A stretch of DNA of 64,000 bases. Source: a virus. Its lineage: Duplodnaviria; Heunggongvirae; Uroviricota; Caudoviricetes. The stretch lies in IMG/VR virus record IMGVR_UViG_2703718822_000010; one strand, 5' to 3'. The translations under genes were made by a program, and so were the position numbers. Positions 3,174 through 38,029 of the stretch are shown in pieces (within the stretch, counting starts at the first letter, position 1; every line of letters begins with the position of its first letter). The notes below the pieces were generated by a model that saw nothing but the letters and a program-made list of their open reading frames with translations, had not been told where the DNA came from and did no database searches.

Positions 3174-4106
3174 ATGACTGATATTAACGATGTAATCAAG
3201 ACCATTGATGAACTTATTGATGGCGGCGTACTGACGCAGTATGCCATCGCCAGAGAGGCGGGAATTTCCGACGGCACATTATCGGCTTTCCGTAAGGGAA
3301 AATATAAAGGCGATAACGCTGCTGTGGCTGCTTCCCTGCGTTCCTGGTATGAGAACTGGAATAAACAAAGCGCACTGCCGGAACCGCCGCAGTTTGTGGA
3401 AACGCAGACAGTCCAGGAGCTGCGCGCACTGTTTCAGGCGGTTCGTCTGATGGGCTGTATTAACGTTATTGTGGGCGTACCGGGTGTGGGTAAAACGGCC
3501 ACTGCCCGTAATTACTGCCAGGAGCAACCAAACACCTGGATGATCACCCTGTCACCCGCGCACTCCAGCGTCACGGAGTGTCTGCTGGAGCTGGCCGATG
3601 CGCTGGGGATTGATTACACCCGCGCGAACAAAGGGGCATTATCCCGCGCCATCCGCCGTCGCCTGATGGGAACGCGTGGACTGGTGATTGTGGATGAGGC
3701 GGATCATCTTGGTATTGACGGTCTGGAGCAACTCCGGGCAATTCAGGACGCCACGGGGATCGGGATGGTGCTTATTGGTAACCCGCGCGGATTGTTTAAA
3801 GGTGGACGCCGCGCCTTTGATGATTTATCGCGCCTGTTCAGCCGTCTTGCCCGTACAAAACAACTTCGCAAGGCCAAAAAGGCGGATGTGCTGGCCATTG
3901 CCAGGGCATGGGGTATCAGTGGTGAGGCCGAGCTGGCCGTCATGCAGGCTATCGCTGAAAAGCCGGGAGCGTTACGCGTTCTGACACATACGCTTAACCA
4001 GGCGTGGCTCACCGCCAGCGGTGAAGGTGCGGCGCTGACAGAAAAACATATTAATGCGGCCTTTAAAGAGGTTTATACCAACCCTGAATTACTCTCACAG
4101 GTGTGA
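3174..4106 (+). CDS. MuB-like transposition ATPase
   Basis: 310 aa with Walker A GVPGVGKT; follows the transposase as in Mu. Confidence 0.8.
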   Translation: MTDINDVIKTIDELIDGGVLTQYAIAREAGISDGTLSAFRKGKYKGDNAAVAASLRSWYENWNKQSALPEPPQFVETQTVQELRALFQAVRLMGCINVIVGVPGVGKTATARNYCQEQPNTWMITLSPAHSSVTECLLELADALGIDYTRANKGALSRAIRRRLMGTRGLVIVDEADHLGIDGLEQLRAIQDATGIGMVLIGNPRGLFKGGRRAFDDLSRLFSRLARTKQLRKAKKADVLAIARAWGISGEAELAVMQAIAEKPGALRVLTHTLNQAWLTASGEGAALTEKHINAAFKEVYTNPELLSQV

Positions 4107-4330
4107 TTATGGCGGTATTTTATATTCCTGATATTTACGGACGCTTTTACCTGGTTAATTTCGATAACGTGAAGGTGATTTCACTGGCCGAAAATAAAGA
4201 ATGTGGCGATTTACTTTTTGAATTTAATGACCGCACACGAATGGTGATATCTGCCGGACTTGATCGCGAAGGTGCGACAGAAGTTTACAGCGGAATATGC
4301 CGTTCTGTTGGTGCGAAACAAGTCAGCTAA
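4103..4330 (+). CDS. Small early protein (Mu kil position)
   Basis: 75-aa ORF with start overlapping the MuB-like stop; function unknown. Confidence 0.4.
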   Translation: MIMAVFYIPDIYGRFYLVNFDNVKVISLAENKECGDLLFEFNDRTRMVISAGLDREGATEVYSGICRSVGAKQVS

Positions 4331-4342
4331 ATGAGGTGTTAT

Positions 4343-4597
4343 ATGAATATGCAATCCTGCGGTAACAAAATGAATTTATTCGACTCCCTGAACAGCGCGC
4401 GCCGTCTGACCGAACTTGCCGGTGCGGTACTGGAACGCAGTAAGCGCTACCCACAACGTTTTGCACTGAAAACCACGCCGCCGGTAGGCAACGTGCAGGG
4501 AACCGGTGAAATTGAAATCACCATACAGACCAACGGCCTGCGCCGCCGTGTGAAGGCCACCCGCATCAGCGGCTGCACGGTTTACTGGGAGGTGTGA
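4343..4597 (+). CDS. Hypothetical early protein
   Basis: ORF 4331..4597; internal ATG at 4343 has a GAGGTG Shine-Dalgarno upstream. Confidence 0.4.
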   Translation: MNMQSCGNKMNLFDSLNSARRLTELAGAVLERSKRYPQRFALKTTPPVGNVQGTGEIEITIQTNGLRRRVKATRISGCTVYWEV

Positions 4598-4598
4598 G

Positions 4599-4880
4599 GT
4601 GAAAAAAAATCTCATTGCATGGGCGTGGTCGAGTGGTCTTATTGAGTTTGGTTACGTCCTGCCGGAAGGTGCATTGCCGATAGTTGCCGGAAAGCCTGCC
4701 ACGGTACGGCATGTGATTGAGGTTATGGCGCGTCATGGACGTGATGAACAGGAGCAGTTACTGGTTCCGGGGATACCGGAAGCGGTGACGGAGGAAGAAG
4801 CCTTTAATGCCATGATTCGGTTCTGCCGTGAGGTCAGACGCCGGGTCAGTTATCCAAACAGAACGAGGACCAGAGGATGA
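4599..4880 (+). CDS. Hypothetical early protein
   Basis: 93-aa ORF tightly packed in the co-directional early operon. Confidence 0.4.
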   Translation: MKKNLIAWAWSSGLIEFGYVLPEGALPIVAGKPATVRHVIEVMARHGRDEQEQLLVPGIPEAVTEEEAFNAMIRFCREVRRRVSYPNRTRTRG

Positions 4881-5149
4881 GTAAAGTCGTACGCATTATT
4901 TTCGAATACAAGGAGCACGTTATCCATAAAAACGCTGATGGAACAGTGCGCATGGGGGTAAGTCTGGACATACGTTCAACCGGGATAAAGCAGAAAGGTG
5001 ATGGACCCGCCATGATTTTTGGAGTGGTTATGCTCGCGGAAAGCAGAGACTTTGCTGAACTTGTGGCAATGAAAGCCAGAGCGCTCATGAAAGATATGAA
5101 CATGAGTTCCGGGGTTATTAAAGGTAATGAATTTAATCAGCAGGGGTAA
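4877..5149 (+). CDS. Hypothetical early protein (paralogue of the next ORF)
   Basis: 90 aa; N-terminus MSKVVRIIFEYKEH matches the next ORF's MSKVRVIFEFEH. Confidence 0.45.
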   Translation: MSKVVRIIFEYKEHVIHKNADGTVRMGVSLDIRSTGIKQKGDGPAMIFGVVMLAESRDFAELVAMKARALMKDMNMSSGVIKGNEFNQQG

Positions 5150-5153
5150 TTCC

Positions 5154-5447
5154 ATGAGCAAAGTACGCGTTATTTTTGAATTTGAGCATGTTTCGCATGA
5201 CGAAAAACCGGCAGGCAATGACAGTGTTGAAGTGCATGAAAAGATTGGAGTGGATGTGAAAACAGAACGTGATACGGATAACAGGCCGACGTCACTCTGT
5301 GACGTTTATGCAAGCATTCTCCAGTATCACAGTCCTGTAATTATTCAGTTTCTCTCAGCGGAATTTCAGGCATCTGTACAGGCTTTTGGGGCGGATGCCA
5401 TCATTAAACGCCACCGCGTGCATAAAGCATCAGGCACACTGCAATAA
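5154..5447 (+). CDS. Hypothetical early protein (paralogue of the previous ORF)
   Basis: Internal start of track ORF 5127..5447; tandem paralogue. Confidence 0.45.
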   Translation: MSKVRVIFEFEHVSHDEKPAGNDSVEVHEKIGVDVKTERDTDNRPTSLCDVYASILQYHSPVIIQFLSAEFQASVQAFGADAIIKRHRVHKASGTLQ

Positions 5448-5458
5448 GGAAAAACAAA

Positions 5459-5989
5459 ATGGCTAAACGTGTTACAAAATTAAAGGCCGCAGCCGAGGCT
5501 GCACCGCAGACCCGCGAAGAAGTCAGCCGCGATATCCGCACCCTGGGCGATATTCAGCGAGAGGCGCTGCGGCTGGAAACGGCGATGAATGATGAAGTGG
5601 CAGAAATCACCGCCCGTTATACGCCGCAAATTGAAAACCTTAAAAAAGAAATCAAAGTGCTTTTTAAGGGGATTCAGGACTGGTGCAAAACCAACCGCGA
5701 TGAGCTGACGAACGGCGGCAAAACCAAAACAGCCAATCTGACCACCGGAACGGTGTCATGGCGACTGGGGAATCCATCATGCAGCGTCAGTCGTGATGTG
5801 GAAGGTGTGATTGAAATGCTGCGCCGTATGGGCCTTGAGCGTTTTATCCGCACGAAAGAGGAAGTGAACAAGGAAGCGGTCCTGGCGGAGCCGGATGCGG
5901 TGAAAGGGATTGCCGGTATTAAGGTGAATAAAGGCGCTGAAAGTTTTTATGTCGAGCCTTTTGAACAGGACGCCGGACTGAATAAATAA
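5459..5989 (+). CDS. gam: Gam host-nuclease inhibitor (Ku-like DNA-end binding)
   Basis: 176 aa; LGDIQREALRLETAMNDEVAEIT, CKTNRDELTNGGKTKTANL and LERFIRTKEEVNKEAVL match Mu Gam as recalled. Confidence 0.85.
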   Translation: MAKRVTKLKAAAEAAPQTREEVSRDIRTLGDIQREALRLETAMNDEVAEITARYTPQIENLKKEIKVLFKGIQDWCKTNRDELTNGGKTKTANLTTGTVSWRLGNPSCSVSRDVEGVIEMLRRMGLERFIRTKEEVNKEAVLAEPDAVKGIAGIKVNKGAESFYVEPFEQDAGLNK

Positions 5990-6086
5990 CACCGCATTAA
6001 TCAATTAAATATCACTTCGTTTTAATTATGGCGCTCGCGTCAGGGGACTGCCTGCGCCTGTAAACTGAAAATAAGGAACAGGATAT

Positions 6087-6629
6087 ATGGCATATTTTTA
6101 TTTCAAATTAGACCGTGTGCAGACAAATAAATATTTCACCAAATATCAACAGACTGTTTTACCGCTACGCAACAGTATTCTTCGGGCATTACTGAAAAAT
6201 ACAGGCGCTGCCGGATTGCGCTTAAAGCCGTTTGCCATGGACGTAATCAGTGAGTTTTATTTTTCTGGTGCTCTGCCTGCGGGCTGGCGTAAGCGCGATG
6301 ATGTGGCTTTTATCGGGGACGGACCGTGCTTTATTGCCAGACCTGATGAGTCATGCCCTGAAGGTCCGGCGATTGCCGCAATGATTGAAACCGCTGAACG
6401 TGAGTTAAGAAAGCGTCCTGATTTCCTTGTCTGGCTCTGTGAAAAGCTGGGGGTAATGAGAATCCCCTCCATGTTTAACACGGACTCCTGGTGGACCCCG
6501 TCGCTCTCCCGTGATGCCCTGTGCGTGGTGTTTAAAGTAGGCGCTTATGGCAGGGAAATAAAAGGGTGTATTCCTGAAGAATGCCAGGAAATTAAACATT
6601 CTGAATATGTGGCGCTGACGGAGGAATAA
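6087..6629 (+). CDS. Hypothetical early protein
   Basis: 180-aa ORF in the early operon. Confidence 0.4.
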   Translation: MAYFYFKLDRVQTNKYFTKYQQTVLPLRNSILRALLKNTGAAGLRLKPFAMDVISEFYFSGALPAGWRKRDDVAFIGDGPCFIARPDESCPEGPAIAAMIETAERELRKRPDFLVWLCEKLGVMRIPSMFNTDSWWTPSLSRDALCVVFKVGAYGREIKGCIPEECQEIKHSEYVALTEE

Positions 6630-6632
6630 TTC

Positions 6633-7166
6633 ATGATTGATGCAAAAGTGCTTGAAGGGGTTAAAAACTGGCTGAGTATTTACGGGCGTCTGACCTGCGG
6701 CATTCTGGCTGAAAAAATGAATATGCCGCCATCCTCGATGGTTTATTTTCTGCGTGATGCGGTCGATGCCGGGGTGCTGACGGAATGTAACGGTTTTTAT
6801 GATATTCCGCGTCCCCGCCCGGTGCAGCCGGTTCGTCGCAAATGCAGCCAGGAAGGTGCGGCTGATGATGTTCAGTGGTGCAGCTTCAGAAAATCCCTGC
6901 CGTGGATTGAGGGGCATGATATTCCGTCGATGGCGTGGGAATTTGCTCAGGGCGTACTGACCTGCGAAACCGTTTATGTGGTGGCTGAAGTTGATGAGCA
7001 GGCCATGAAAGAAGGCGTGCCCCAGTTTGTGATGGCGTATATCGACATTCGCCTGGGTGTCATTATCTGCGGTTTAAGCGGCTGGAATATCACCGAACAT
7101 GTTCTGCGTTACCTGATTGTTGACCGGACGGCTGCGCCTGCCGGGATATCTGCGGAGGTGGCGTAA
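6633..7166 (+). CDS. Hypothetical early protein
   Basis: 177-aa ORF in the early operon. Confidence 0.4.
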   Translation: MIDAKVLEGVKNWLSIYGRLTCGILAEKMNMPPSSMVYFLRDAVDAGVLTECNGFYDIPRPRPVQPVRRKCSQEGAADDVQWCSFRKSLPWIEGHDIPSMAWEFAQGVLTCETVYVVAEVDEQAMKEGVPQFVMAYIDIRLGVIICGLSGWNITEHVLRYLIVDRTAAPAGISAEVA

Positions 7167-7681
7167 TGTTCTTTAAAACATCAAACCCTTCCGCGCTGGC
7201 TGCGTGGCAAAAATACCAGCAGGACTACAAGAAAGTTAAGGATGAGGCAAAACGTCTTGAGGCCGTGCTGAATGTTGATTGTCGGTCGGTATTTGTATCC
7301 GGTATCAATGGTTTTTATTTTAAAGGACTGCGTTTTACGGATAACAAATATCCTTTTCATCGCGACTTATGGCGAAAACCGACTGCGTCGAATGGCTGGA
7401 GCTGCACGCCGCGCACATCGTGTATTCCCAAAGCCCTGTGCGCTGCCTCTGACGAACTTAACAGTCTGTGGCGTGAATATTCGCCCGTCACGTATGCCAG
7501 AACCGATGCCCTGTTGTTCTGGCTGGGTATTGATTTCTCGGCAATCCTGTTTGGCCCTGTGGAGTGGTTCTGCGTTGACGATGTGATTTACCTTCAGTGC
7601 GGCGTAAAACCCGCAAAACAGAAAATGACCGAAATTCTGTCTGATGAGTTTTATGCTGCTGAAAAGCGAGTCAGGGGGTGA
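7166..7681 (+). CDS. Hypothetical early protein
   Basis: 171-aa ORF; start overlaps the upstream stop. Confidence 0.4.
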   Translation: MFFKTSNPSALAAWQKYQQDYKKVKDEAKRLEAVLNVDCRSVFVSGINGFYFKGLRFTDNKYPFHRDLWRKPTASNGWSCTPRTSCIPKALCAASDELNSLWREYSPVTYARTDALLFWLGIDFSAILFGPVEWFCVDDVIYLQCGVKPAKQKMTEILSDEFYAAEKRVRG

Positions 7682-7684
7682 TGT

Positions 7685-8236
7685 ATGATGATTTTACAAC
7701 CCATGGGGCGAAAAGGCCGTGCACCCGCTCATGTCCGTGCGTGGACACCTGAAGAAGATGCACTGCTGATTGCGCTTTATCCATCCACCCCGGTTAAGGA
7801 TATTGCTGTCAGGGTAAAAAGAAGTTTCTGGGGTGTACATAACCGGATTGTTTTATTACGCGGTACTTACCCGGAGTTGCTCAAATGCAAACGTCCAAGA
7901 TTTAAACATGATGAAGATAAATTTATCCGAAAAAATGCCAGAACGATGACCGGTAAGCAAATAGGAGAATATCTGGGGCGAGACCGGGATTCTGTCCACA
8001 AACGGGCGCGATATATTGGCGTAAGCATGAAAAAATACGGAGAGTTGCTGCCCTTCACCCGTATACCTGATGATGATGTTCATCTTATTCGTGAATTACG
8101 GGATGCTGAATCACCACGACGTCTTACCTTCCGGGAAATAGGCGAGAAATTTGAATTATCCGAGAGTACGGTGAATTTTATTTATCACCATCGCCGGACT
8201 GCCGAAGATGTTGTATTACGGGAGTTAATGCCATGA
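7685..8236 (+). CDS. Hypothetical early protein, possible DNA-binding
   Basis: 183-aa basic protein with two internally repeated HTH-like segments. Confidence 0.35.
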   Translation: MMILQPMGRKGRAPAHVRAWTPEEDALLIALYPSTPVKDIAVRVKRSFWGVHNRIVLLRGTYPELLKCKRPRFKHDEDKFIRKNARTMTGKQIGEYLGRDRDSVHKRARYIGVSMKKYGELLPFTRIPDDDVHLIRELRDAESPRRLTFREIGEKFELSESTVNFIYHHRRTAEDVVLRELMP

Positions 8237-18531: not shown

Positions 18532-18707
18532 TTGTTTAAGGTATGCAAATGCATTACCTTACCCCCTTCAGGCGCGTGTCGTGATTTTCTAACCTGAATT
18601 TAACGGGCTTTAAAATCTGCGTGAAGCGCCTTTGTATTTTTCCCCTGAAAGCACTTCCTGAAATCCCGCAAAACCCGCCCTGAAAATTCCCGGCCTATGC
18701 TGCCGGA
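18532..18707. promoter_or_regulatory. Candidate strong gyrase site (central G-I intergenic region)
   Basis: 176-bp non-coding gap between G-like and I-like genes, the position of the Mu SGS; motif not verified. Confidence 0.3.
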
Positions 18708-30475: not shown

Positions 30476-31557
30476 TGCCTTATCAGCCCTTACCACTGGC
30501 GCAACTGATCACACAGACACAACAGGATATCAGCCAGCGCCTGCCCGGTTCGCAGCCGGGCGTGAATGAAACCACCCTGAATGCCATTGCGTATGCACTG
30601 GCGGGTCTGTCAGCACAGGAGCATGAACATCTGGCCTGGATCTCCCGGCAGATAATTCCGACAGAAGCTGATGAAGCCGAACTCCTGAAACACTGCGCAT
30701 TCTGGGGTGTCATCCGTAAACCGGCTTCCCGCGCTGACGGACCGGTACAACTGATGCTGACCACGGATGCAGGGATCACGGAAGGCGTACTCCTTCAGCG
30801 AAGCGATGGTGTTGTGTACCGCATCACCGGCTCTGCGACCGGAAAAGCCGGAACACTGAATGTTAATGTGGAGGCGGAAAGTGCGGGGCGCGCCGGAAAT
30901 ACCCCGACCGGAACCCGCCTGTCCTTTATCACGCCACAGGCGGGCATCAACCAGACAGCCACGGTTACCGGCACGGGACTCACCGGTGGTGCGGATGTGG
31001 AAACGGTGCCGGAGTTGCTGTCCAGGCTGGTATTCCGGGTACAGAACCCGCCATCAGGGGGAACACAGTATGATTTTGAACGCTGGGCACGGGAAGTACC
31101 GGGCGTGACGCGGGCATGGTGTAAGCCTGAATGGCCTGAGGCGGGTAGTGTTGGTGTGACTTTTGTTCAGGATAATAACCCTGACATTTTCCCCGGAGAA
31201 GGTGATGTGAAGCGGGTGGCGGATTATATCCGCAGTCATGATGATCCGGCGACGGGCCAGCCCGTTGGTCAGCCACTTGGGCCGACAATCAGCGTGTTTA
31301 AGCTGACCAATAAGCCGGTGGCGTTTGAGATCAGGATTGTACCCAAAACGCCGGAAAATCAGGCTGCCGTAAAACAGGCATTAACGGACCTGCTTTATAA
31401 CGAATCGCGGCCGGGTGGACTTGTATTGCCTTCATCATTCTGGCGGGCTGTTGCAGGGGTGAAAGGACTGGAGGATTTTGAAGTTCGCAGTCCGCTGAAG
31501 TCCGTGATGGCCGGAGATACAGAGTTGCTGACCGTGGGGGAAATCACATGGCTGTAA
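30472..31557 (+). CDS. Baseplate J-like wedge protein (Mu gp47-like)
   Basis: 361 aa; synteny. Confidence 0.65.
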   Translation: MMPYQPLPLAQLITQTQQDISQRLPGSQPGVNETTLNAIAYALAGLSAQEHEHLAWISRQIIPTEADEAELLKHCAFWGVIRKPASRADGPVQLMLTTDAGITEGVLLQRSDGVVYRITGSATGKAGTLNVNVEAESAGRAGNTPTGTRLSFITPQAGINQTATVTGTGLTGGADVETVPELLSRLVFRVQNPPSGGTQYDFERWAREVPGVTRAWCKPEWPEAGSVGVTFVQDNNPDIFPGEGDVKRVADYIRSHDDPATGQPVGQPLGPTISVFKLTNKPVAFEIRIVPKTPENQAAVKQALTDLLYNESRPGGLVLPSSFWRAVAGVKGLEDFEVRSPLKSVMAGDTELLTVGEITWL

Positions 31558-32108
31558 CCCTGACCCCGCATCAGCGCGCCCTGTTGCAGTTGCTGCCTGA
31601 CGGGCTGGCATGGGATAAGCGGCCGTCATCCGTTCTTGCGGCTTTGTGCCTGGGCCTCAGTCATTCCACGGAGCGTGTTTCCTGGACCGGTAACCAGATG
31701 CTGGCAGAACGTTTTCCTGATTCATCCCGTCTGCTGCTGGAAGACTGGGAGCGTTATCTGGGGTTACCGGAATGTGATATGACCGGCGCAACCATTCAGG
31801 AACGTCAGCGTTATGCAGGGAATAAATACCGGATGAAACCCTCTCTTAACCGTGAATTTTATATCCGGTTTGCGGCAGAGTTTGGTTATGAAATAGATAT
31901 TCAGCCATCACCGGATTCACAGTGGGTCAGTATTGTCACGATAAACAGTGAAACCGGCTACCGGAATATGAATGTGCTGGATGATATTCTCACCCCGCTG
32001 CGTATTTATGAGGGTGGTGCGCTGGAATGTATTCTGAACCGTTATAAGCCTGCATGGCAGACGTTTATTTACGTGTATGCAAACAGTCACAAAGAGGAGA
32101 ATATTTAA
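31548..32108 (+). CDS. Tail protein (Mu gp48-like)
   Basis: 186 aa upstream of the tail fibre. Confidence 0.6.
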   Translation: MAVTLTPHQRALLQLLPDGLAWDKRPSSVLAALCLGLSHSTERVSWTGNQMLAERFPDSSRLLLEDWERYLGLPECDMTGATIQERQRYAGNKYRMKPSLNREFYIRFAAEFGYEIDIQPSPDSQWVSIVTINSETGYRNMNVLDDILTPLRIYEGGALECILNRYKPAWQTFIYVYANSHKEENI

Positions 32109-33019
32109 TGTTCCATGTTGATAATAATTCCGGCGTGGCGAATATGCCTGAACTGGCTCCGGCGCAGAGTAATACCACCACCTGGTTTACCGAAGGTGAC
32201 GGACAAAAAGGTATCAGCTGGATTGGTCAGGACTGGCTGAATATTCTCCAGGCCGAACTGCTGAATATTCTGGCTGAAGCCAGTATTCAGCCGGATAAGG
32301 CGCAGTTAAACCAGCTTACGCTGTCCATTAAAGCCATTATCGCTGCGAATGCCTTTTCCCGGAAAAACAACCTGAAAGAAATTGCTGATGCCGGTGCGGA
32401 AGCCCAGCGTCTGGCCCGTGGTTATCTTGGTCTGGGGACGCTTGCCACAAAAAACAGTCTTGGTCCCGCTGACGTTAATGCCCTGGCGAAGGATCAGAAC
32501 CTTGCCGACCTGGAGAATGCGGAAACCGCCCGTAATAATCTGGATGTTTACAGCAGGAGCGAAGGTGATAACCGTTACCTGCGCAGGGACCAGAATGGCG
32601 CGGATATCCAGGACAAAGGAACCTTTATCGATAACCTCGGTTTACGGGAAACGGTAAATAAGGCTGCTGATGCCCTGCCATCGGCTGGAACCGCCGTGGC
32701 AGCAAACAGACTCGCCACCCCAAGAAATATTAATGGTGTTCCTTTTGACGGAACGCTGGATATCAACATCACGTCAGGAATGACGCAGTCAACCGCAGAT
32801 GGCCGGTATGTACAGAATGTTCAGCTTGGAGCACAGAGCTATCATTCACCCGGAGGCAATGAAATGTCATGGAATTACAGCGCACCTTCCGGTTGTATGC
32901 TTTCCGGTATTAACGTGCAGGAAACCGGCTCCCGGTCTGCGGACAATATCGGTGGGGTCTATTATCGCCCGGTTCAGATTTATATTCATAATACCTGGAG
33001 AACGGTAAGTTCAGTGTAA
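32108..33019 (+). CDS. Tail fibre protein S (constant part plus currently expressed variable C-terminus Sv)
   Basis: Start at ATG 32108; C-terminal 123 aa lie inside the invertible segment. Confidence 0.75.
   Translation: MFHVDNNSGVANMPELAPAQSNTTTWFTEGDGQKGISWIGQDWLNILQAELLNILAEASIQPDKAQLNQLTLSIKAIIAANAFSRKNNLKEIADAGAEAQRLARGYLGLGTLATKNSLGPADVNALAKDQNLADLENAETARNNLDVYSRSEGDNRYLRRDQNGADIQDKGTFIDNLGLRETVNKAADALPSAGTAVAANRLATPRNINGVPFDGTLDINITSGMTQSTADGRYVQNVQLGAQSYHSPGGNEMSWNYSAPSGCMLSGINVQETGSRSADNIGGVYYRPVQIYIHNTWRTVSSV
32625..32650. other. gix-like recombination site (left)
   Basis: TTATCGATAACCTCGGTTTACGGGAA inside the S gene; core AACCTCGGTTTAC resembles the Gin/Hin-family crossover site. 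Confidence 0.7.
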
Positions 33020-33026
33020 ACCACAG

Positions 33027-33049
33027 AAAAGGGTGCTGAATGCACCCTC
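33027..33049. terminator. Hairpin between Sv and U' (bidirectional terminator candidate)
   Basis: AGGGTGC-TGAAT-GCACCCT stem-loop; T-rich tract follows on the minus strand. Confidence 0.45.
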
Positions 33050-33053
33050 TGAA

Positions 33054-33575
33054 TTATTCCGGTTTTTCCGGCCAGGGAATCGCCTGGTAATGCCCCTCAC
33101 TGGCAATATCATTAAAGTGCATTTCTTTAAGCTGTCGGATATACGCCATCCAGCGCGTCAGCTGTAATTTATTTTCATCGCTAATCATGTCCAGTTTTAA
33201 TTCTGTTTTCCAGTCATCCACGGTTTCGTTGGCTTCCTGGAGCAGCGATGAGCGACGCTTTTCAGCAACCGTCTTCCAGTTTACCGGCACCTTTGATATC
33301 AGGCCATCAGAAAACTGCCAGTTACCGTCAATATTCACACCTTCCGGCAGTTCGTCCACTTCAACAACAGTAAAACCTGCCGGATATAAAGCAGAGACAT
33401 CTTCAGCAACAGAGCAGATAATACCCGTTACAGGCGAAATACAGAGTTTGTATTTCTTTGTAAAAAGCGGGATAGATTCATAAAAATCCCTTCCGTCCTC
33501 ACTCTGGAAATACTGAACATCCTCACCATAGGGTTTGTCTTTCGGGTAATATCGTTTGACATTAATCAGTTGCAT
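33054..33575 (-). CDS. Tail fibre assembly protein U' (for the alternative fibre)
   Basis: N-terminal YFQSEDGRDFYE motif typical of Tfa proteins; start at internal Met of track ORF 33054..33626. Confidence 0.7.
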   Translation of the reverse strand: MQLINVKRYYPKDKPYGEDVQYFQSEDGRDFYESIPLFTKKYKLCISPVTGIICSVAEDVSALYPAGFTVVEVDELPEGVNIDGNWQFSDGLISKVPVNWKTVAEKRRSSLLQEANETVDDWKTELKLDMISDENKLQLTRWMAYIRQLKEMHFNDIASEGHYQAIPWPEKPE

Positions 33576-33696
33576 AAACATCACCATGTAAATCAATGAT
33601 AAAAACAGGAATAATACTATCGCCATATACAGGCAATGCTTGTCTGAAATAACGCATATTTCAGATGCTGGCTGCTGTGTGCTATGCCCCCGTTAA

Positions 33697-34068
33697 TTAA
33701 ATACTTGCAGCGGATACCCAATGCCCATTAATACAATATTGTATCTGTCTGTAATAAACACGGTCATCACCACCACGCATTTCCCAGTCTCCGTCAGTCT
33801 TAAAACCGGTAATCACATTTCCTGATGACAGGGAGTAATTATATTCCAGTCCGCCGCTTAATGCCTGCGCTCCCAGTCTTACCCCTGTAACATAACGCTG
33901 ATTGGCCGTTGATTCCGGCATTCCTGACGTAATGTTTATATCCTGCGTGCCGTCAAAGGCGACACCATTGATTCTGCGGGCATTTGCCAGCCTGCTTGCT
34001 GCAACAGCCGTACCGTTTGATGGCAGGGCATTCGCGGCCCTGTTTACCGTATCCCGTAAACCGAGGTT
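33697..34068 (-). CDS. Alternative tail fibre C-terminal segment Sv' (silent in this orientation)
   Basis: Minus-strand frame opens immediately inside the right gix-like site (NLGLRDTVN...) and ends RVYYRQIQYCINGHWVSAASI, parallel to the S C-terminus. Confidence 0.65.
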   Translation of the reverse strand, partial: NLGLRDTVNRAANALPSNGTAVAASRLANARRINGVAFDGTQDINITSGMPESTANQRYVTGVRLGAQALSGGLEYNYSLSSGNVITGFKTDGDWEMRGGDDRVYYRQIQYCINGHWVSAASI

Positions 34069-34076
34069 TCAGGGAT
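34051..34076. other. gix-like recombination site (right, inverted)
   Basis: Reverse complement ATCCCTGAAACCTCGGTTTACGGGAT shares the core with the left site. Confidence 0.7.
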
Positions 34077-34130
34077 GCCGTATATCTACTTTAAAAGGCT
34101 TTTCCACCTCTTTTTAAGGAAGGTAAATAC

Positions 34131-34691
34131 ATGCTGATTGGCTATATACGCGTATCAACAAATGACCAGAACACCGGTTTACAAAGAAATGCGCTGGAAT
34201 GTGCAGGATGTGAGCAGATTTTTGAAGACAAAATGAGTGGTAAAACGACACAGCGGCCGGGACTGAAGCGGGCACTGAAGAAACTAAAACCCGGTGACAC
34301 GCTGATGGTCTGGAAACTGGACAGGCTGGGGCGCAGTATGCGCCACCTTGTTGCGCTGACAGATGAATTACAGCAACAGGGGATAAATTTTCGTAGTCTT
34401 ACTGACAACATTGATACGTCAACCCCCATGGGGCGCTTCTTTTTTCACATAATGGGTGCGCTGGCAGAAATGGAGCGTGAATTAATTGTCGAACGGACAC
34501 GGGCTGGTCTTGCAGCTGCCCGTGAAAGGGGACGAACCGGCGGCAGACCCCGCCGTCTCACGCAGGAACAATACGAGCAGGTCGGGCGTTTACTGGCCGG
34601 GGGTGTCAGTCGAAGACAGGTGGCACTTATTTTTGATATCGGTCTTTCAACCCTTTATCGTTATTATCCTGCGAGCGTTTCGGAAAAATAA
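34131..34691 (+). CDS. gin: Gin/Hin/Cin-family serine DNA invertase
   Basis: 186 aa; N-terminal MLIGYIRVSTNDQ with catalytic Ser and C-terminal HTH. Confidence 0.9.
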   Translation: MLIGYIRVSTNDQNTGLQRNALECAGCEQIFEDKMSGKTTQRPGLKRALKKLKPGDTLMVWKLDRLGRSMRHLVALTDELQQQGINFRSLTDNIDTSTPMGRFFFHIMGALAEMERELIVERTRAGLAAARERGRTGGRPRRLTQEQYEQVGRLLAGGVSRRQVALIFDIGLSTLYRYYPASVSEK

Positions 34692-34790
34692 GACGCTCTC
34701 TTTGTTGGGCCTTTACTGAATTAACGCAAAATGGCGTTTATCGGTCTGTGGATATGATAATTCAGTTTATTCAGGAACAGGCTGATTATT

Positions 34791-36800
34791 ATGACGTCCA
34801 AATGGGTTCAACTATCATCAATGCCCGGAAACTTTACTGTTAAAGTTTCCGGTGGTACAGCGGCATTTCTTGAGGCTCCCTTTCCTCCGGCCGAAACAAA
34901 AGGAGGAATGACATTTGCTGACTGTCTCATCAGTTTTAATACACGGGATTGCCTGTGGGTAAGGCCAGTATCCGGTGATCCGAGTGTGGAAATTACCGGA
35001 GCGGGTATTGGTGCGGTCATTCCGTTAAGTGCTGATGTTGCCGGTACTGCTGAACCGTCAGACTGGGATAATGCTGAAACACATACCCGTCCGTCAGGAA
35101 ATGAAACTGCTTCCAGCTCCCCTTCCTGGTATTACGTGGTGGTTCTTGCTGGTCAGTCAAACGGTATGGCTTACGGTGAAGGTCTGCCACTGCCGGAGAC
35201 ATATGACCGCCCCGAACCGCGTATTATGCAGTTAGCCCGTCGCAGTACAGTCACGCCGGGAGGTAAAGCCTGTCAGTATAACGACATCATTCTGGCCGAC
35301 CACTGTCTGCATGATGTGCAGGATATGAGTGGAAAAAATCACCCGAAAGCGGATGTGGCTAAAGGGCAATATGGCACCGTGGGTCAGGGGCTTCACATTG
35401 CCAAAAAACTGCTGCCGTTTATTCCGGCAGATGCGGGGATTCTGCTGGTTCCCTGCTGCCGTGGTGGTTCTGCATTCACGGCGGGTGCTGACGGCACGTA
35501 CAGTGACAGCACGGGTGCTTCAGAGGACTCAGCCCGCTGGGGTGTGGATAAGCCGCTGTATAAGGACTTAATCAGCCGGACAAAAGCGGCACTGGCGAAG
35601 AACCCGAAAAACCGCCTGCTTGCTGTGGTGTGGATGCAGGGCGAGTTTGATATTGATGCGAAGCCGACGGAGCATTCTGCGCTGTTTCTGGCGATGGTGG
35701 AAAAATTCCGCGCAGACCTGGCTGAACAGGCGGAACAGTGTACCGGTGGCAGTGCTGCTGGCGTTCCGTGGATTTGTGGCGATACCACGTATTTCTGGAA
35801 ACAGAAAAATGAACCAGCATACCAGGCAATCTATGGCGGCTACAAAAACAAAACAGATAAAAACATTCATTTCGTTCCATTAATGACAGATGAAAATGGC
35901 GTGAATGTACCCACCAACAATCCGGCAGAAGACCCGGATATTGAATCCATTGGTTATTACGGCTCAACGTGGCGTAACAGTGCCGCTACCTGGACATCTG
36001 CGGACCGGGCCAGCCATTTCAGTGCCTGGGCGCGCCGGGGTATTATTTCTGACCGTCTGGCCACGGCTGTTCTGACTCATGCAGGGCGAACCACAGTAAA
36101 AGCCGATGTTCCATCTTCTGAAACTGAAGCAGTAACCACAACACTGCTGTCTTACCGTGTCAGTGAGTCAGAAGGAAATCTGAAAGCCCAGGGCTGGGAG
36201 CCGGCTGGCGGTAAAGCTGAAATTATCAGTGATGCAGGAGGCACAGGTGGTAAGGCAATGAAACTGACCAAGGAAACAGGTAAATCATCCTGGTATCTGG
36301 ATCATGATGCCGGTACTGGTGCTGAACTGCTGAAAAATGGTGGTTTAATCAGTTGTCGTTTTAAAGTACCTGGCGACCTGGTGGCAAACCAGTATGTCAT
36401 GGCGCTTTACTGGCCGGTTTCCTCTCTGCCGCAGGGTGTCACCCTGACAGGGGATGCAGGGAATAATCTGCTGGCATCGTTCTACATCCAGACAGACGCA
36501 AAAGACCTGAATGTGATGTACCACAATGCAAAAGTGGCAACAAATAACCAGAAACTGGGAACCTTTGGTGCATTTGATAATGAATGGCATACGCTGGCCT
36601 TCCGTTTTGCAGGAAATAACAGCCTTCAGGTTATTCCGGTTATTGATGGTCAGGATGGTGCCGCGTTTACCCTGACGCAGTCACCAGTAGGAACTTTCCC
36701 GGTGGACAAACTCCGCGTAACGGATATCACCAAAAATGCAACTTACCCGGTGCTGATTGACAGCATTGTGGTGGAAGTGAAAAAAGCGGTAACAGAATAA
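34791..36800 (+). CDS. NanS-p-like sialate O-acetylesterase (SGNH/SASA domain) with C-terminal beta-rich domain
   Basis: 669 aa; VVVLAGQSNGMAYGEG motif characteristic of the SASA esterase family. Confidence 0.55.
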   Translation: MTSKWVQLSSMPGNFTVKVSGGTAAFLEAPFPPAETKGGMTFADCLISFNTRDCLWVRPVSGDPSVEITGAGIGAVIPLSADVAGTAEPSDWDNAETHTRPSGNETASSSPSWYYVVVLAGQSNGMAYGEGLPLPETYDRPEPRIMQLARRSTVTPGGKACQYNDIILADHCLHDVQDMSGKNHPKADVAKGQYGTVGQGLHIAKKLLPFIPADAGILLVPCCRGGSAFTAGADGTYSDSTGASEDSARWGVDKPLYKDLISRTKAALAKNPKNRLLAVVWMQGEFDIDAKPTEHSALFLAMVEKFRADLAEQAEQCTGGSAAGVPWICGDTTYFWKQKNEPAYQAIYGGYKNKTDKNIHFVPLMTDENGVNVPTNNPAEDPDIESIGYYGSTWRNSAATWTSADRASHFSAWARRGIISDRLATAVLTHAGRTTVKADVPSSETEAVTTTLLSYRVSESEGNLKAQGWEPAGGKAEIISDAGGTGGKAMKLTKETGKSSWYLDHDAGTGAELLKNGGLISCRFKVPGDLVANQYVMALYWPVSSLPQGVTLTGDAGNNLLASFYIQTDAKDLNVMYHNAKVATNNQKLGTFGAFDNEWHTLAFRFAGNNSLQVIPVIDGQDGAAFTLTQSPVGTFPVDKLRVTDITKNATYPVLIDSIVVEVKKAVTE

Positions 36801-36946
36801 AAAAATCCCGCCGGTCATGATATGGCTGGCGGGAGCTACCTAACCCATAAAGGAAAATAAAAATACTCCCGAAGGAGTGGTTATCAGTCGCTTCGATGTT
36901 TTTACCCGATAACGAATTATGTAGTCAATATCAAAGGTAAGGTTAT

Positions 36947-37129
36947 ATGACATTCGTTCATACAATGCTGCTTTATTTCTGCGCTGTGGTCAGTGCGTTA
37001 TATCTGGTGAGCGGCGGTTATAAGGTCATCAGAAATTATATTCGCCGTAAAATTGATGATGCGGCAGCTGAAAAACTCAGTAAAACAGCACAGGCACCGT
37101 CATCCCCAAACGACCCGACCCCGCTCTGA
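36947..37129 (+). CDS. Small membrane protein
   Basis: 60 aa with an N-terminal hydrophobic helix. Confidence 0.35.
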   Translation: MTFVHTMLLYFCAVVSALYLVSGGYKVIRNYIRRKIDDAAAEKLSKTAQAPSSPNDPTPL

Positions 37130-37164
37130 TAACGGGGCAATATACCTGCAAAAGGAGAATATTC

Positions 37165-37410
37165 ATGCCAGAGATTAAAGGCACGGTTACTGAAGAGCTT
37201 GTCAAACAGGCACTTTATTCTGAAGAAGTGAACCGCGTGCTGAAGGCGCAGGTTCGCAAGGATTTTGAGGCACAAATCGACGCATATGTTGATGAAGTGC
37301 TGGCCCGAATGGTTGGCCGTTCTCCGGCTGAAAACAGCACGGAAAATGATCCTCAACCCGTAGAGCAACCAGAGCCGGTTCAGCCCGGAACTGACGGTAC
37401 TATGATGTAA
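37165..37410 (+). CDS. Hypothetical small acidic protein
   Basis: 81 aa with upstream AAGGAG Shine-Dalgarno. Confidence 0.4.
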   Translation: MPEIKGTVTEELVKQALYSEEVNRVLKAQVRKDFEAQIDAYVDEVLARMVGRSPAENSTENDPQPVEQPEPVQPGTDGTMM

Positions 37411-37418
37411 CAATACCG

Positions 37419-37450
37419 ACCGGCAGGTTTCCCTGCCGGGTGAGTTTGTT
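37419..37450 (+). terminator. Rho-independent terminator candidate
   Basis: CGGCAGG-TTTC-CCTGCCG hairpin followed by a T-rich tract. Confidence 0.4.
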
Positions 37451-37499
37451 AATGCACGTTTTGTGTATTTTCCCTCCTGGGAGAACAGGCAGGACATAT

Positions 37500-38029
37500 C
37501 AGCATCCTGAAACAGGAAGCATTTTTGGGTTTGTATGTCTTGCCATTTTGAGATCGAGAACGGCGATAGATGAGCTGTAAGGGAGTCTTACAGGCAGGGC
37601 AAACAGGCTCTTTCATCCATGATAAAGATCTCCTTTTTATGCATCTCTGCTTTACAGGAGACTGGGGAATATCATAGGATACGCCACGAGCTCGAAGTAA
37701 AGCATTGATGCAAAATTGTCTAAATCGGCCCAGAATAGTTCGCGCTATCTGGGTCGCTCTTTATGTATGTAGTATCCCATTGATTTGAAACATACTACAT
37801 ATACGCGCGATCCTACCTTCACTATATAAAAAGTCAATAAAATGATCATTTTATGATCGTTTTCACCACCTAACTCTTCGTTTTCTTTAAGTAAATAATC
37901 ACCTACCTGAATCATTGTTGATGACTTTTCAATCTATTTGTTGTATCAATTAAACAAATCGAATCGATCGTTTTTGTCGATCGATTGCATGAGAAAGGCA
38001 TCAACAACAAAGCAGGAGGTTATGCGGCC
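37500..38029 (+). promoter_or_regulatory. com-mom upstream regulatory region with GATC cluster and palindrome
   Basis: GATC sites near 37552, 37627, 37809, 37843, 37855, 37966 and 37979; perfect inverted repeat ATCGATCG-N7-CGATCGAT at 37962-37984. Confidence 0.45.

Follow-up and report, generated by a model that had tools for sequence, protein, structure and literature searches.

We describe an invertible tail-fibre segment in a 64,000-nt stretch of DNA (IMG/VR virus record IMGVR_UViG_2703718822_000010; this whole stretch is referred to below as the window). The stretch is a Mu-like prophage of Shiga-toxin-type Escherichia coli, in which repressor and transposase are followed by head, tail and baseplate genes, the fibre gene S, gin, com and mom. 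The segment carries two alternative 3′ exons of S, Sv and Sv', and one tail-fibre assembly (chaperone) gene, U'. The reading that we favour, and consider probable, is that the segment is a Gin/gix host-range switch whose single chaperone U' is shared by the two alternative fibres and expressed on its own. The segment and its borders comprise the following features (window coordinates).

32108-33019, + strand: S (Sc-Sv), fibre gene of 303 amino acids (aa), which reads through gixL into Sv.
32108-32638, + strand: Sc, N-terminal part of S that stays constant because it lies beyond the borders of the invertible segment.
32625-32650: gixL, crossover site of 26 bp inside S, TTATCGATAACC-TC-GGTTTACGGGAA, crossover dinucleotide TC at 32637-32638.
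32633-32811: inverted repeat, left arm of 179 nt with 75% complementarity to the right arm, encoding the shared start of both exons.
32639-33019, + strand: Sv, alternative C-terminal exon of 126 codons and a stop, fused to Sc in the window orientation.
33028-33050: GC-rich hairpin between the converging Sv and U' stops, a 9-bp stem and then TTTTCTGTGGTTT on the minus strand.
33054-33575, - strand: U', the sole tail-fibre assembly gene of the segment, 173 aa, convergent with S-Sv.
33576-33696, - strand: non-coding region upstream of U', 121 nt, 39% G+C, the last 80 nt of which are the proposed promoter and leader of U'.
33697-34062, - strand: Sv', alternative C-terminal exon of 121 codons and a stop, silent in the window orientation.
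33890-34068: inverted repeat, right arm of 179 nt with 75% complementarity to the left arm.
34051-34076: gixR, crossover site of 26 bp, ATCCCGTAAACC-GA-GGTTTCAGGGAT on the + strand, dinucleotide GA at 34063-34064 (+).
34131-34691, + strand: gin, serine DNA invertase of 186 aa, its ATG 54 nt past gixR.

A sequence-only reading of this DNA had proposed two inverted gix-like sites with a common core, one inside S and the other just upstream of gin, and both sites were recovered. The core AACCTCGGTTTACGGGA is present in exactly two copies in the window, at 32633-32649 (+) and 34052-34068 (-), in inverted orientation, and produced no matches in 100 shuffles, even when up to 2 mismatches were allowed. 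The reverse complement of gixR is ATCCCTGAAACC-TC-GGTTTACGGGAT, and the core TC is found in both sites in the same sense. The half-sites end in AAACC/GGTTT, as in the Gin/Hin/Cin/Pin systems, with TAACC in place of AAACC in the outer half of gixL, and 23 of the 26 gixL positions match Mu gixL. The frame of S continues through gixL into Sv. On the minus strand, no stop codon interrupts the frame between gixR and 33697, and this stretch is Sv'. Both exons open at the sites, as had been stated, and the patchy identity that had been traced about 170 bp inward corresponds to the two inverted-repeat arms. Gin contains the Pfam domains Resolvase (E = 1.4e-51) and HTH_7 (E = 1.7e-14) and shares 76% identity with Mu Gin. 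Invertase genes of this kind have a Fis-bound recombinational enhancer in their 5′ part. This part of the window gin can be aligned well with Mu gin; the two matches to the Fis consensus, which is loose, that are found in Mu gin are unmatched at the same stringency in the window.

In-silico inversion, i.e., a flip of positions 32637-34064, yields an in-frame Sc-Sv' protein of 298 aa. Two complete genomes of E. coli, NZ_CP045827 and NZ_AP026099, contain the corresponding 3301-nt inverted construct in one piece at 100.0% identity, and two further genomes match it at 99.0% and 98.5%. When a query coverage of 80% or more is required, complete E. coli records number 185 for the window orientation and 27 for the inverted one. 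In a collection of 15 billion proteins, 431 contigs carry the exact S-Sv protein and 265 the exact predicted Sc-Sv' protein, and among IMG/VR loci of the same prophage family the assembly gene (tfa) is antisense to the fibre gene in eight and in sense in three. The Sv orientation is thus the commoner one in all three counts. The segment inverts in nature, and the Gin switch is almost certainly active. The sites, the frames, the domains of Gin and the natural inverted forms together bear out the earlier view of a G-like, Gin-driven invertible tail-fibre segment.

The two tips that are exchanged by the inversion are quite different. Residues 1-198 of S match the N-terminus of Mu S (PDB 5YVQ_A; domain E = 5e-43). 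The Sv tip belongs to a class recognized by the motif “GINVQ..SADNIGGVYYRP” and is 60% identical to the SfMu S' tip, 54-62% to the H tips of P2-like phages and 67% to the tip of Rac-SA53. The Sv' tip is 57% identical to the tip of Mu S. Sv and Sv' share only 39% identity and resemble the tips of different phages; the two orientations may give different host ranges.

The only assembly gene recognized in the segment is U', which matches Pfam Caudo_TAP (PF02413) with E = 1.9e-18 (67.3 bits against a cut-off of 22.1) and Mu U (PDB 5YVQ_B) with E = 1e-15. It is co-oriented with Sv' and lies downstream of it after a gap of 121 nt; relative to Sv it is convergent, with only 34 nt between the two stop codons, where the hairpin at 33028-33050 looks like a terminator on the minus strand. 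The statement that the segment, unlike that of Mu with its U and U', has a single minus-strand assembly gene, antisense to the fibre operon in the window orientation, is therefore correct. A plus-strand assembly gene had been named as a finding that would overturn this picture. One sizeable plus-strand open reading frame (ORF) inside the segment, 33187-33483 (98 aa), lies antisense to U' and was the only candidate; it was rejected, for stop codons break it in the diverged relatives L007 and L010.

It had also been claimed that the Sv fibre has no cognate chaperone inside the segment. The relatives of the prophage speak against this claim. We scanned IMG/VR with a profile of Sv-class tips, allowing 400 nt behind the tip, and obtained 74 evaluable loci. 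A same-strand tfa is found close behind the tip in all 57 loci outside the prophage family, while the 17 loci of the family contain a convergent tfa only. In five annotated phages, the Sv-class tip is followed by a Caudo_TAP gene within 2-17 nt. Since every one of the 57 outside loci carries a same-strand tfa, the Sv tip class normally travels with a chaperone.

Five of the 17 family loci (L112-L115 and L118) are devoid of Sv', gixR and gin. Several complete E. coli genomes are gin-less as well: three are 99.9% identical to each other, and four more, at ca. 92%, have no annotated recombinase. The gin-less sequences are colinear with the window from 31509 to 33670 or 33702 (i.e., up to the Sv' stop), after which homology jumps to 34821 in the DUF6645 gene; ca. 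240 nt of unrelated sequence replace window positions 33671-34820. Sc of the window is 92-100% identical to that of the gin-less relatives. One of these, the prophage in bcsA of S1-CAM-01-A, was inspected in full and contains baseplate genes, gp48, S with an Sv-class tip, a tfa on the opposite strand, DUF6645, DUF1378 and DUF826 genes, com and mom. The sole fibre of this prophage is S-Sv, and its tfa is permanently convergent to it. Thus, the gin-less prophages have gp48, S-Sv, the convergent tfa with its conserved upstream region, DUF6645, com and mom in common with the window and differ from it in being without Sv', gixR and gin.

Between two gin-less lineages, tfa has diverged with a synonymous rate (dS) of 0.383 and a nonsynonymous rate (dN) of 0.049, i.e., a dN/dS ratio of 0.13. 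As the convergent tfa is kept by selection in prophages without an invertase, it must have a transcript of its own, and no fibre other than S-Sv is there for it to serve. In addition, the closest phage relative of U', with 51% identity, is the Tfa of Rac-SA53, which follows a tip 67% identical to Sv. Because the gin-less relatives keep S-Sv together with the same convergent tfa under purifying selection, U' is most likely Sv's own chaperone.

These data also bear on the alternative that survives best, namely that the Sv tip folds without a dedicated chaperone and U' serves Sv' only. One could expect this from the low identity of the two tips, from the antisense position of U' relative to the fibre operon in the Sv orientation, for which no convincing promoter was found, and from the fact that tfa stands directly after Sv', and never after Sv, in every locus of the family. 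Gin-less relatives, which are without Sv', nevertheless keep an intact tfa under purifying selection beside S-Sv, and both the invariable same-strand tfa of Sv-class tips elsewhere and the pairing of the nearest relative of U' with an Sv-class tip point the other way. We therefore regard this alternative as unlikely.

U' may have expression signals of its own. In the 80 nt ahead of the U' start codon, the window and the gin-less relatives share 94-96% identity, compared with 66-67% in the U' coding sequence. The gap before tfa is 51-121 nt long and AT-rich in single-tfa systems, ca. 0-2 nt in two-tfa systems (2 nt at the equivalent position in Mu) and ca. 2-17 nt in non-invertible tip-tfa pairs. 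A perfect dyad, CTGAAA-N9-TTTCAG, is located at 33644-33664 upstream of U' and has no second copy in the window; it may bind a protein or form a stem-loop. The gin-less relatives have retained the dyad, albeit with an additional A, and both of its arms are altered in L007 and L010.

Several candidate elements in this region were considered and set aside. The hairpin at 33642-33664 is unsupported as a conserved RNA structure, as L007 changes both arms without restoring the pair. The CTGAAA hexamer is uninformative as a half-site of a late activator: it occurs 106 times in the window, including three direct copies upstream of gene I (18645-18685) and the two inverted ones upstream of U'. A Mu C-protein late promoter was suggested by the plus-strand sequence CTATGCCCCCGTTAA at 33682-33696, which resembles Mu Pmom (TTATGCCCCAATAA), and was dropped; TATGCCCC was found in the window only at the U' spacer, with no obvious counterpart upstream of com/mom, I, lys or N/P. 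Finally, a leftward promoter in the gap between gixR and gin, which would read U' in the Sv orientation only, was dropped since no feature of this gap separates one-tfa from two-tfa families; L045/L046 and L099 have an identical gap of 115 nt.

The sharing of one chaperone by different tips is suggested by the combinations in which the alleles occur. We aligned 10 loci of ca. 85-100% identity (one phage record and nine E. coli loci, the window included). Their alleles are mosaic, with two versions each of the Sv' tip, the Sv tip and U' that occur in several combinations, and the U'-1 allele is found with four tips, Sv'-1, Sv'-2, Sv-a and Sv-b. Likewise, Mu U and SfMu gp51 are 91% identical, yet they are paired with different tip types. 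Three tips are present along with one tfa in Citrobacter braakii (L018) and in the IMG/VR loci L045 and L077. Most likely, U' would serve both tips of the window, for which such combinations are indirect support.

To place the single chaperone in a wider context, IMG/VR was scanned with Gin. The scan returned 80 loci with 73-100% identity, and a gix-like pair beside the invertase could be recognized in 34 evaluable loci, a set that includes the reference loci (the window, Mu, SfMu and Citrobacter L018). In this census, which is rough in that it relies on pattern-based site finding and a home-made tfa profile, 27 segments contain one tfa, six contain two (Mu, SfMu and four others), and none was detected in one. 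The single-tfa cases span at least five unrelated fibre families. The layout of Mu is not the rule in the Gin-type switches sampled, and the Mu principle of one chaperone per fibre tip fails for most of them.

Our preferred reading can be summarized as follows. Gin would recombine gixL, inside S, with gixR and flip the 1.43-kb segment, whereby Sc is joined to either the Sv or the Sv' tip. In the window orientation, U' would be transcribed on the minus strand from a presumed promoter in its own conserved upstream region, and its product would fold the Sv fibre. After inversion, Sv' would stand directly upstream of U' on the strand of the fibre operon, making the same chaperone available to the Sv' fibre. 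The hairpin at 33028-33050 would end the converging transcripts. The Sv'-gixR-gin block would be an add-on set upstream of a pre-existing tfa. In a broader form of this scheme, the base module of the family would be a fibre gene facing a convergent, self-transcribed assembly gene that works with multiple tips; Gin switches would arise by acquisition of an upstream tip-gix-gin block, so that two to three tips share a chaperone. More generally, a single tfa was the commoner state among the Gin-type switches sampled (27 of 34). We hold this generalization to be evenly balanced between right and wrong.

A number of points weigh against the shared, self-expressed chaperone. Assembly chaperones of this kind are usually matched to the C-terminus of their fibre (the G protein of P2 and pyocin retargeting are examples), so shared use is not guaranteed, and the two tips in question have only 39% of their residues in common. 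The best σ70 match in the U' spacer scores only 8/12, which is no better than AT-rich DNA often gives, and the Mu C-protein-like site is unconserved across alleles and absent from the Sv'-2 spacer. The conserved block in front of U' may have no regulatory role and instead serve as a flank in cassette exchange: like Sc, it borders a variable block, and in the Sv'-2 allele the spacer is replaced along with the tip. The gin-less layout, in turn, could be a derived replacement and not the ancestral state.

As a source of a chaperone for the Sv fibre, the sequence-only reading had pointed to the assembly gene 7 kb downstream. Two features beyond the end of the Mu-like prophage are relevant here.

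39050-40137: truncated fibre gene of a Shiga toxin (Stx)-type prophage, belonging to this other phage.
40179-40850, + strand: tfa (Caudo_TAP/DUF4376) of the Stx-type prophage, outside the Mu-like prophage.

The right end of the Mu-like prophage is at 39049, where homology with the copy in NZ_CP066756, which adjoins ydeM, stops. The sequence that follows, starting at 39050, matches the tail-fibre region of the Stx1c phage phiSTEC1589 (PQ600364) with 99.9% identity over 5.25 kb. Because homology ends at 39049 and the flank is nearly identical to Stx1c phage DNA, we conclude from this junction (region 39049-44300) that the window copy of the Mu-like phage is inserted into the fibre gene of an Stx-type prophage, which it has truncated. 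An inserted Mu-like phage of this kind is also annotated in two GenBank records of Stx phages, LC727881 and LC727895.

That the Sv fibre borrows its chaperone from another prophage, be it the tfa at 40179-40850 or that of another lambdoid prophage, would fit the presence of a Caudo_TAP/DUF4376 gene on the plus strand downstream and the many prophages in the genomes of this type of E. coli. This tfa, however, lies in the Stx1c-like flank, is only 25% identical to U' and is not a constant neighbour: other copies of the Mu-like prophage adjoin unrelated host genes, e.g., ydeM or bcsA, and have no such tfa beside them. Expression of a borrowed gene would presumably also need induction of the other prophage. 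We consider such borrowing very improbable, and the proposed reliance on this particular tfa is not upheld.

Equally improbable, in our opinion, is that the Sv orientation is an OFF state in which particles have no working fibres and Sv is a relic, as was suggested when the Sv fibre was called possibly non-functional. The lack of a chaperone gene co-oriented with Sv would agree with this. However, the one-tfa layout and intact Sv, Sv' and U' are found in 10 of the 10 aligned loci. The dN/dS of the tips is 0.09-0.18 for Sv (at dS of 0.2-0.9) and 0.17-0.24 for Sv'. L007 and L010 have unchanged C-terminal residues in Sv despite heavy synonymous divergence of the DNA at the 3′ end of this exon. 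Sv is also the sole fibre tip of the gin-less relatives, and its orientation is the one that prevails in all counts given above, with the exact S-Sv protein on 431 contigs. Sv is thus, by the substitutions it has and has not accepted, a functional exon with no sign of being a relic or of decay. The least probable of the alternatives is that the switch was co-opted by the host and one fusion product acts in the lysogen, e.g., by receptor masking against other phages: a cryptic-prophage precedent exists in E. coli K-12 (the e14 fusion StfE2 formed via PinQ inversion; PMC12529663) and the locus is widespread in E. coli, but the prophage appears complete from transposase to mom, packaging of the DNA of the related prophage Sp18 has been reported (PMC2669165), and nothing points to S expression in the lysogen.

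The switch itself is textbook biology, and the closest known system is the G segment of Mu (S/U, U'/S' and gin, with versions in SfMu and D108). The fibre N-terminus, Gin and gixL of the window are homologous to those of Mu (see above), and in both the constant part lies outside the segment, the alternative C-terminal exons lie inside and gin is located just to the right. In contrast to Mu, the segment of the window measures 1.43 kb (ca. 3 kb in Mu), its exons encode ca. 125 aa (ca. 330 aa in Mu), there is one tfa instead of two (S-U and S'-U'), the distance between tfa and the upstream exon is 121 nt instead of 2 nt, and cargo genes (DUF6645/SASA and others) that Mu is without are found between gin and com/mom. 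The C segment of P1 and the P segment of e14 likewise exchange fibre C-termini, with invertases (Cin, Pin) of the same family as Gin, and, as usually described, have a chaperone gene for each orientation. The e14 P segment has been described (PMC4272514), as has a P2-like prophage of enteropathogenic E. coli (EPEC) with three alternative C-termini (PMC4272514). In multi-site fibre shufflons, such as p15B Min and the three-repeat locus of the latter prophage, several tips share one constant part, as in the window, which differs from them in having only two sites and two tips.

The invertibility of prophages of this type has also been noted previously. Sp18 is a Mu-like prophage of E. coli O157:H7 Sakai, whose invertible host-specificity region was pointed out in 2009 (PMC2669165), and the invertible locus of an EPEC Mu prophage has been confirmed experimentally to be phase-variable (PMC4272514). 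The window locus matches O157:H7 chromosomes at up to 100% identity and agrees with what has been published on Sp18; the window element and Sp18 very probably belong to the same element family. Sp18 likewise has an invertible region, and the paper describing it (PMC2669165) is silent on the number of assembly genes. In a limited literature search, we found no paper that discusses one-chaperone switches, and a 2026 paper on Pectobacterium does not mention chaperone numbers.

The single chaperone is a genuine departure from Mu and reflects neither a defect nor dependence on a neighbouring prophage. The chaperone gene of the family is a separate convergent unit, the product of which very probably accepts a number of rather dissimilar tips, and the switch looks like an add-on to this unit. 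If one chaperone indeed folds tips that are ca. 40% identical, this would help the re-targeting of phages and tailocins, for which tip and chaperone are currently moved together.

Next to the gp48-like gene, the annotation of the fibre genes deserves a comment. The last gene before S is located as follows.

31548-32108, + strand: gp48-like baseplate wedge gene (YmfQ family; Pfam Phage_Mu_Gp48, E = 2e-22; annotated by PGAP as “YmfQ family protein”).

In Mu, gp48 is the docking partner of the fibre N-terminus (PMC11915804). RefSeq misses the intact 295-aa S gene in L009 (2106-2993) and L011 (2087-2974), calling a short fragment and an antisense ORF instead, and labels the silent exon an “incomplete” pseudogene in every genome checked (L005-L011). 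Both the missed genes and the pseudogene labels are annotation artefacts of invertible fibre genes. If one chaperone indeed serves both tips, a rule for annotation would follow: a silent, N-terminally “incomplete” tail protein beside a recombinase, with a lone tfa in between, should be taken for a working alternative exon and not for a pseudogene.

Some variation was seen at the crossover sites. In some alleles (L007 and L009; alignment of 32639-32811 with 33890-34062), the Sv' arm bears the Sv-type arm sequence GLRETVNKAADALPSGG..., and we therefore conclude from the aligned alleles that the inverted-repeat arms are homogenized by gene conversion, while the tips beyond them stay distinct. In some alleles, gixL reads AACGTCGG. 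A recurrent site variant, AAC-G-TCGGTTT, has a C to G change beside the crossover dinucleotide, which changes Leu to Val in the fibre. It is carried by gixL of L006, L007, L010, L112 and L118, by SfMu gixL (L002:1874) and by site 3 of L018 (7212). Among its carriers are three E. coli alleles in the inverted orientation, both gin-less lineages and one Citrobacter site. Such a C to G change was suggested in the SfMu paper as a possible block to inversion.

A scan of GTDB with Sc returned only four loci, of which two are cut by contig ends, one (L021) shares only “NLGL”, and only Citrobacter L018 is informative. In L021 (Morganella psychrotolerans, 3602-5141), a non-invertible tail fibre contains the motif “DQNGADIQDK..F.ENLGL”, including AAACC-NN-GGTTT, and a tfa in the same orientation comes after it; the 5.5 kb inspected contained no invertase ORF of 90 aa or more. 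Because this non-invertible fibre has it, the crossover site coincides, by this comparison, with a conserved fibre motif that exists without any switch. The Citrobacter braakii locus (L018, strain ATCC 51113, 4819-7871) comprises three sites, three tips, one DUF4376-type tfa and an invertase. Its third exon (7222 to 6869, minus strand) stops exactly where the second site starts, and a perfect two-way terminator separates the plus-strand tip from tfa at the same place as the hairpin of the window.

The cargo between gin and com/mom (window 34791-37500) is absent from Mu. The product of its large gene is 669 aa long and combines a SASA domain, of the sialate-O-acetylesterase-like kind, with DUF6645 at the C-terminus; small DUF1378- and DUF826-type genes come next. 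The SASA/DUF6645 gene is 30 nt shorter than in NZ_CP066756 and ca. 69-76% identical in the gin-less relatives; its product may be receptor-modifying or tail-associated.

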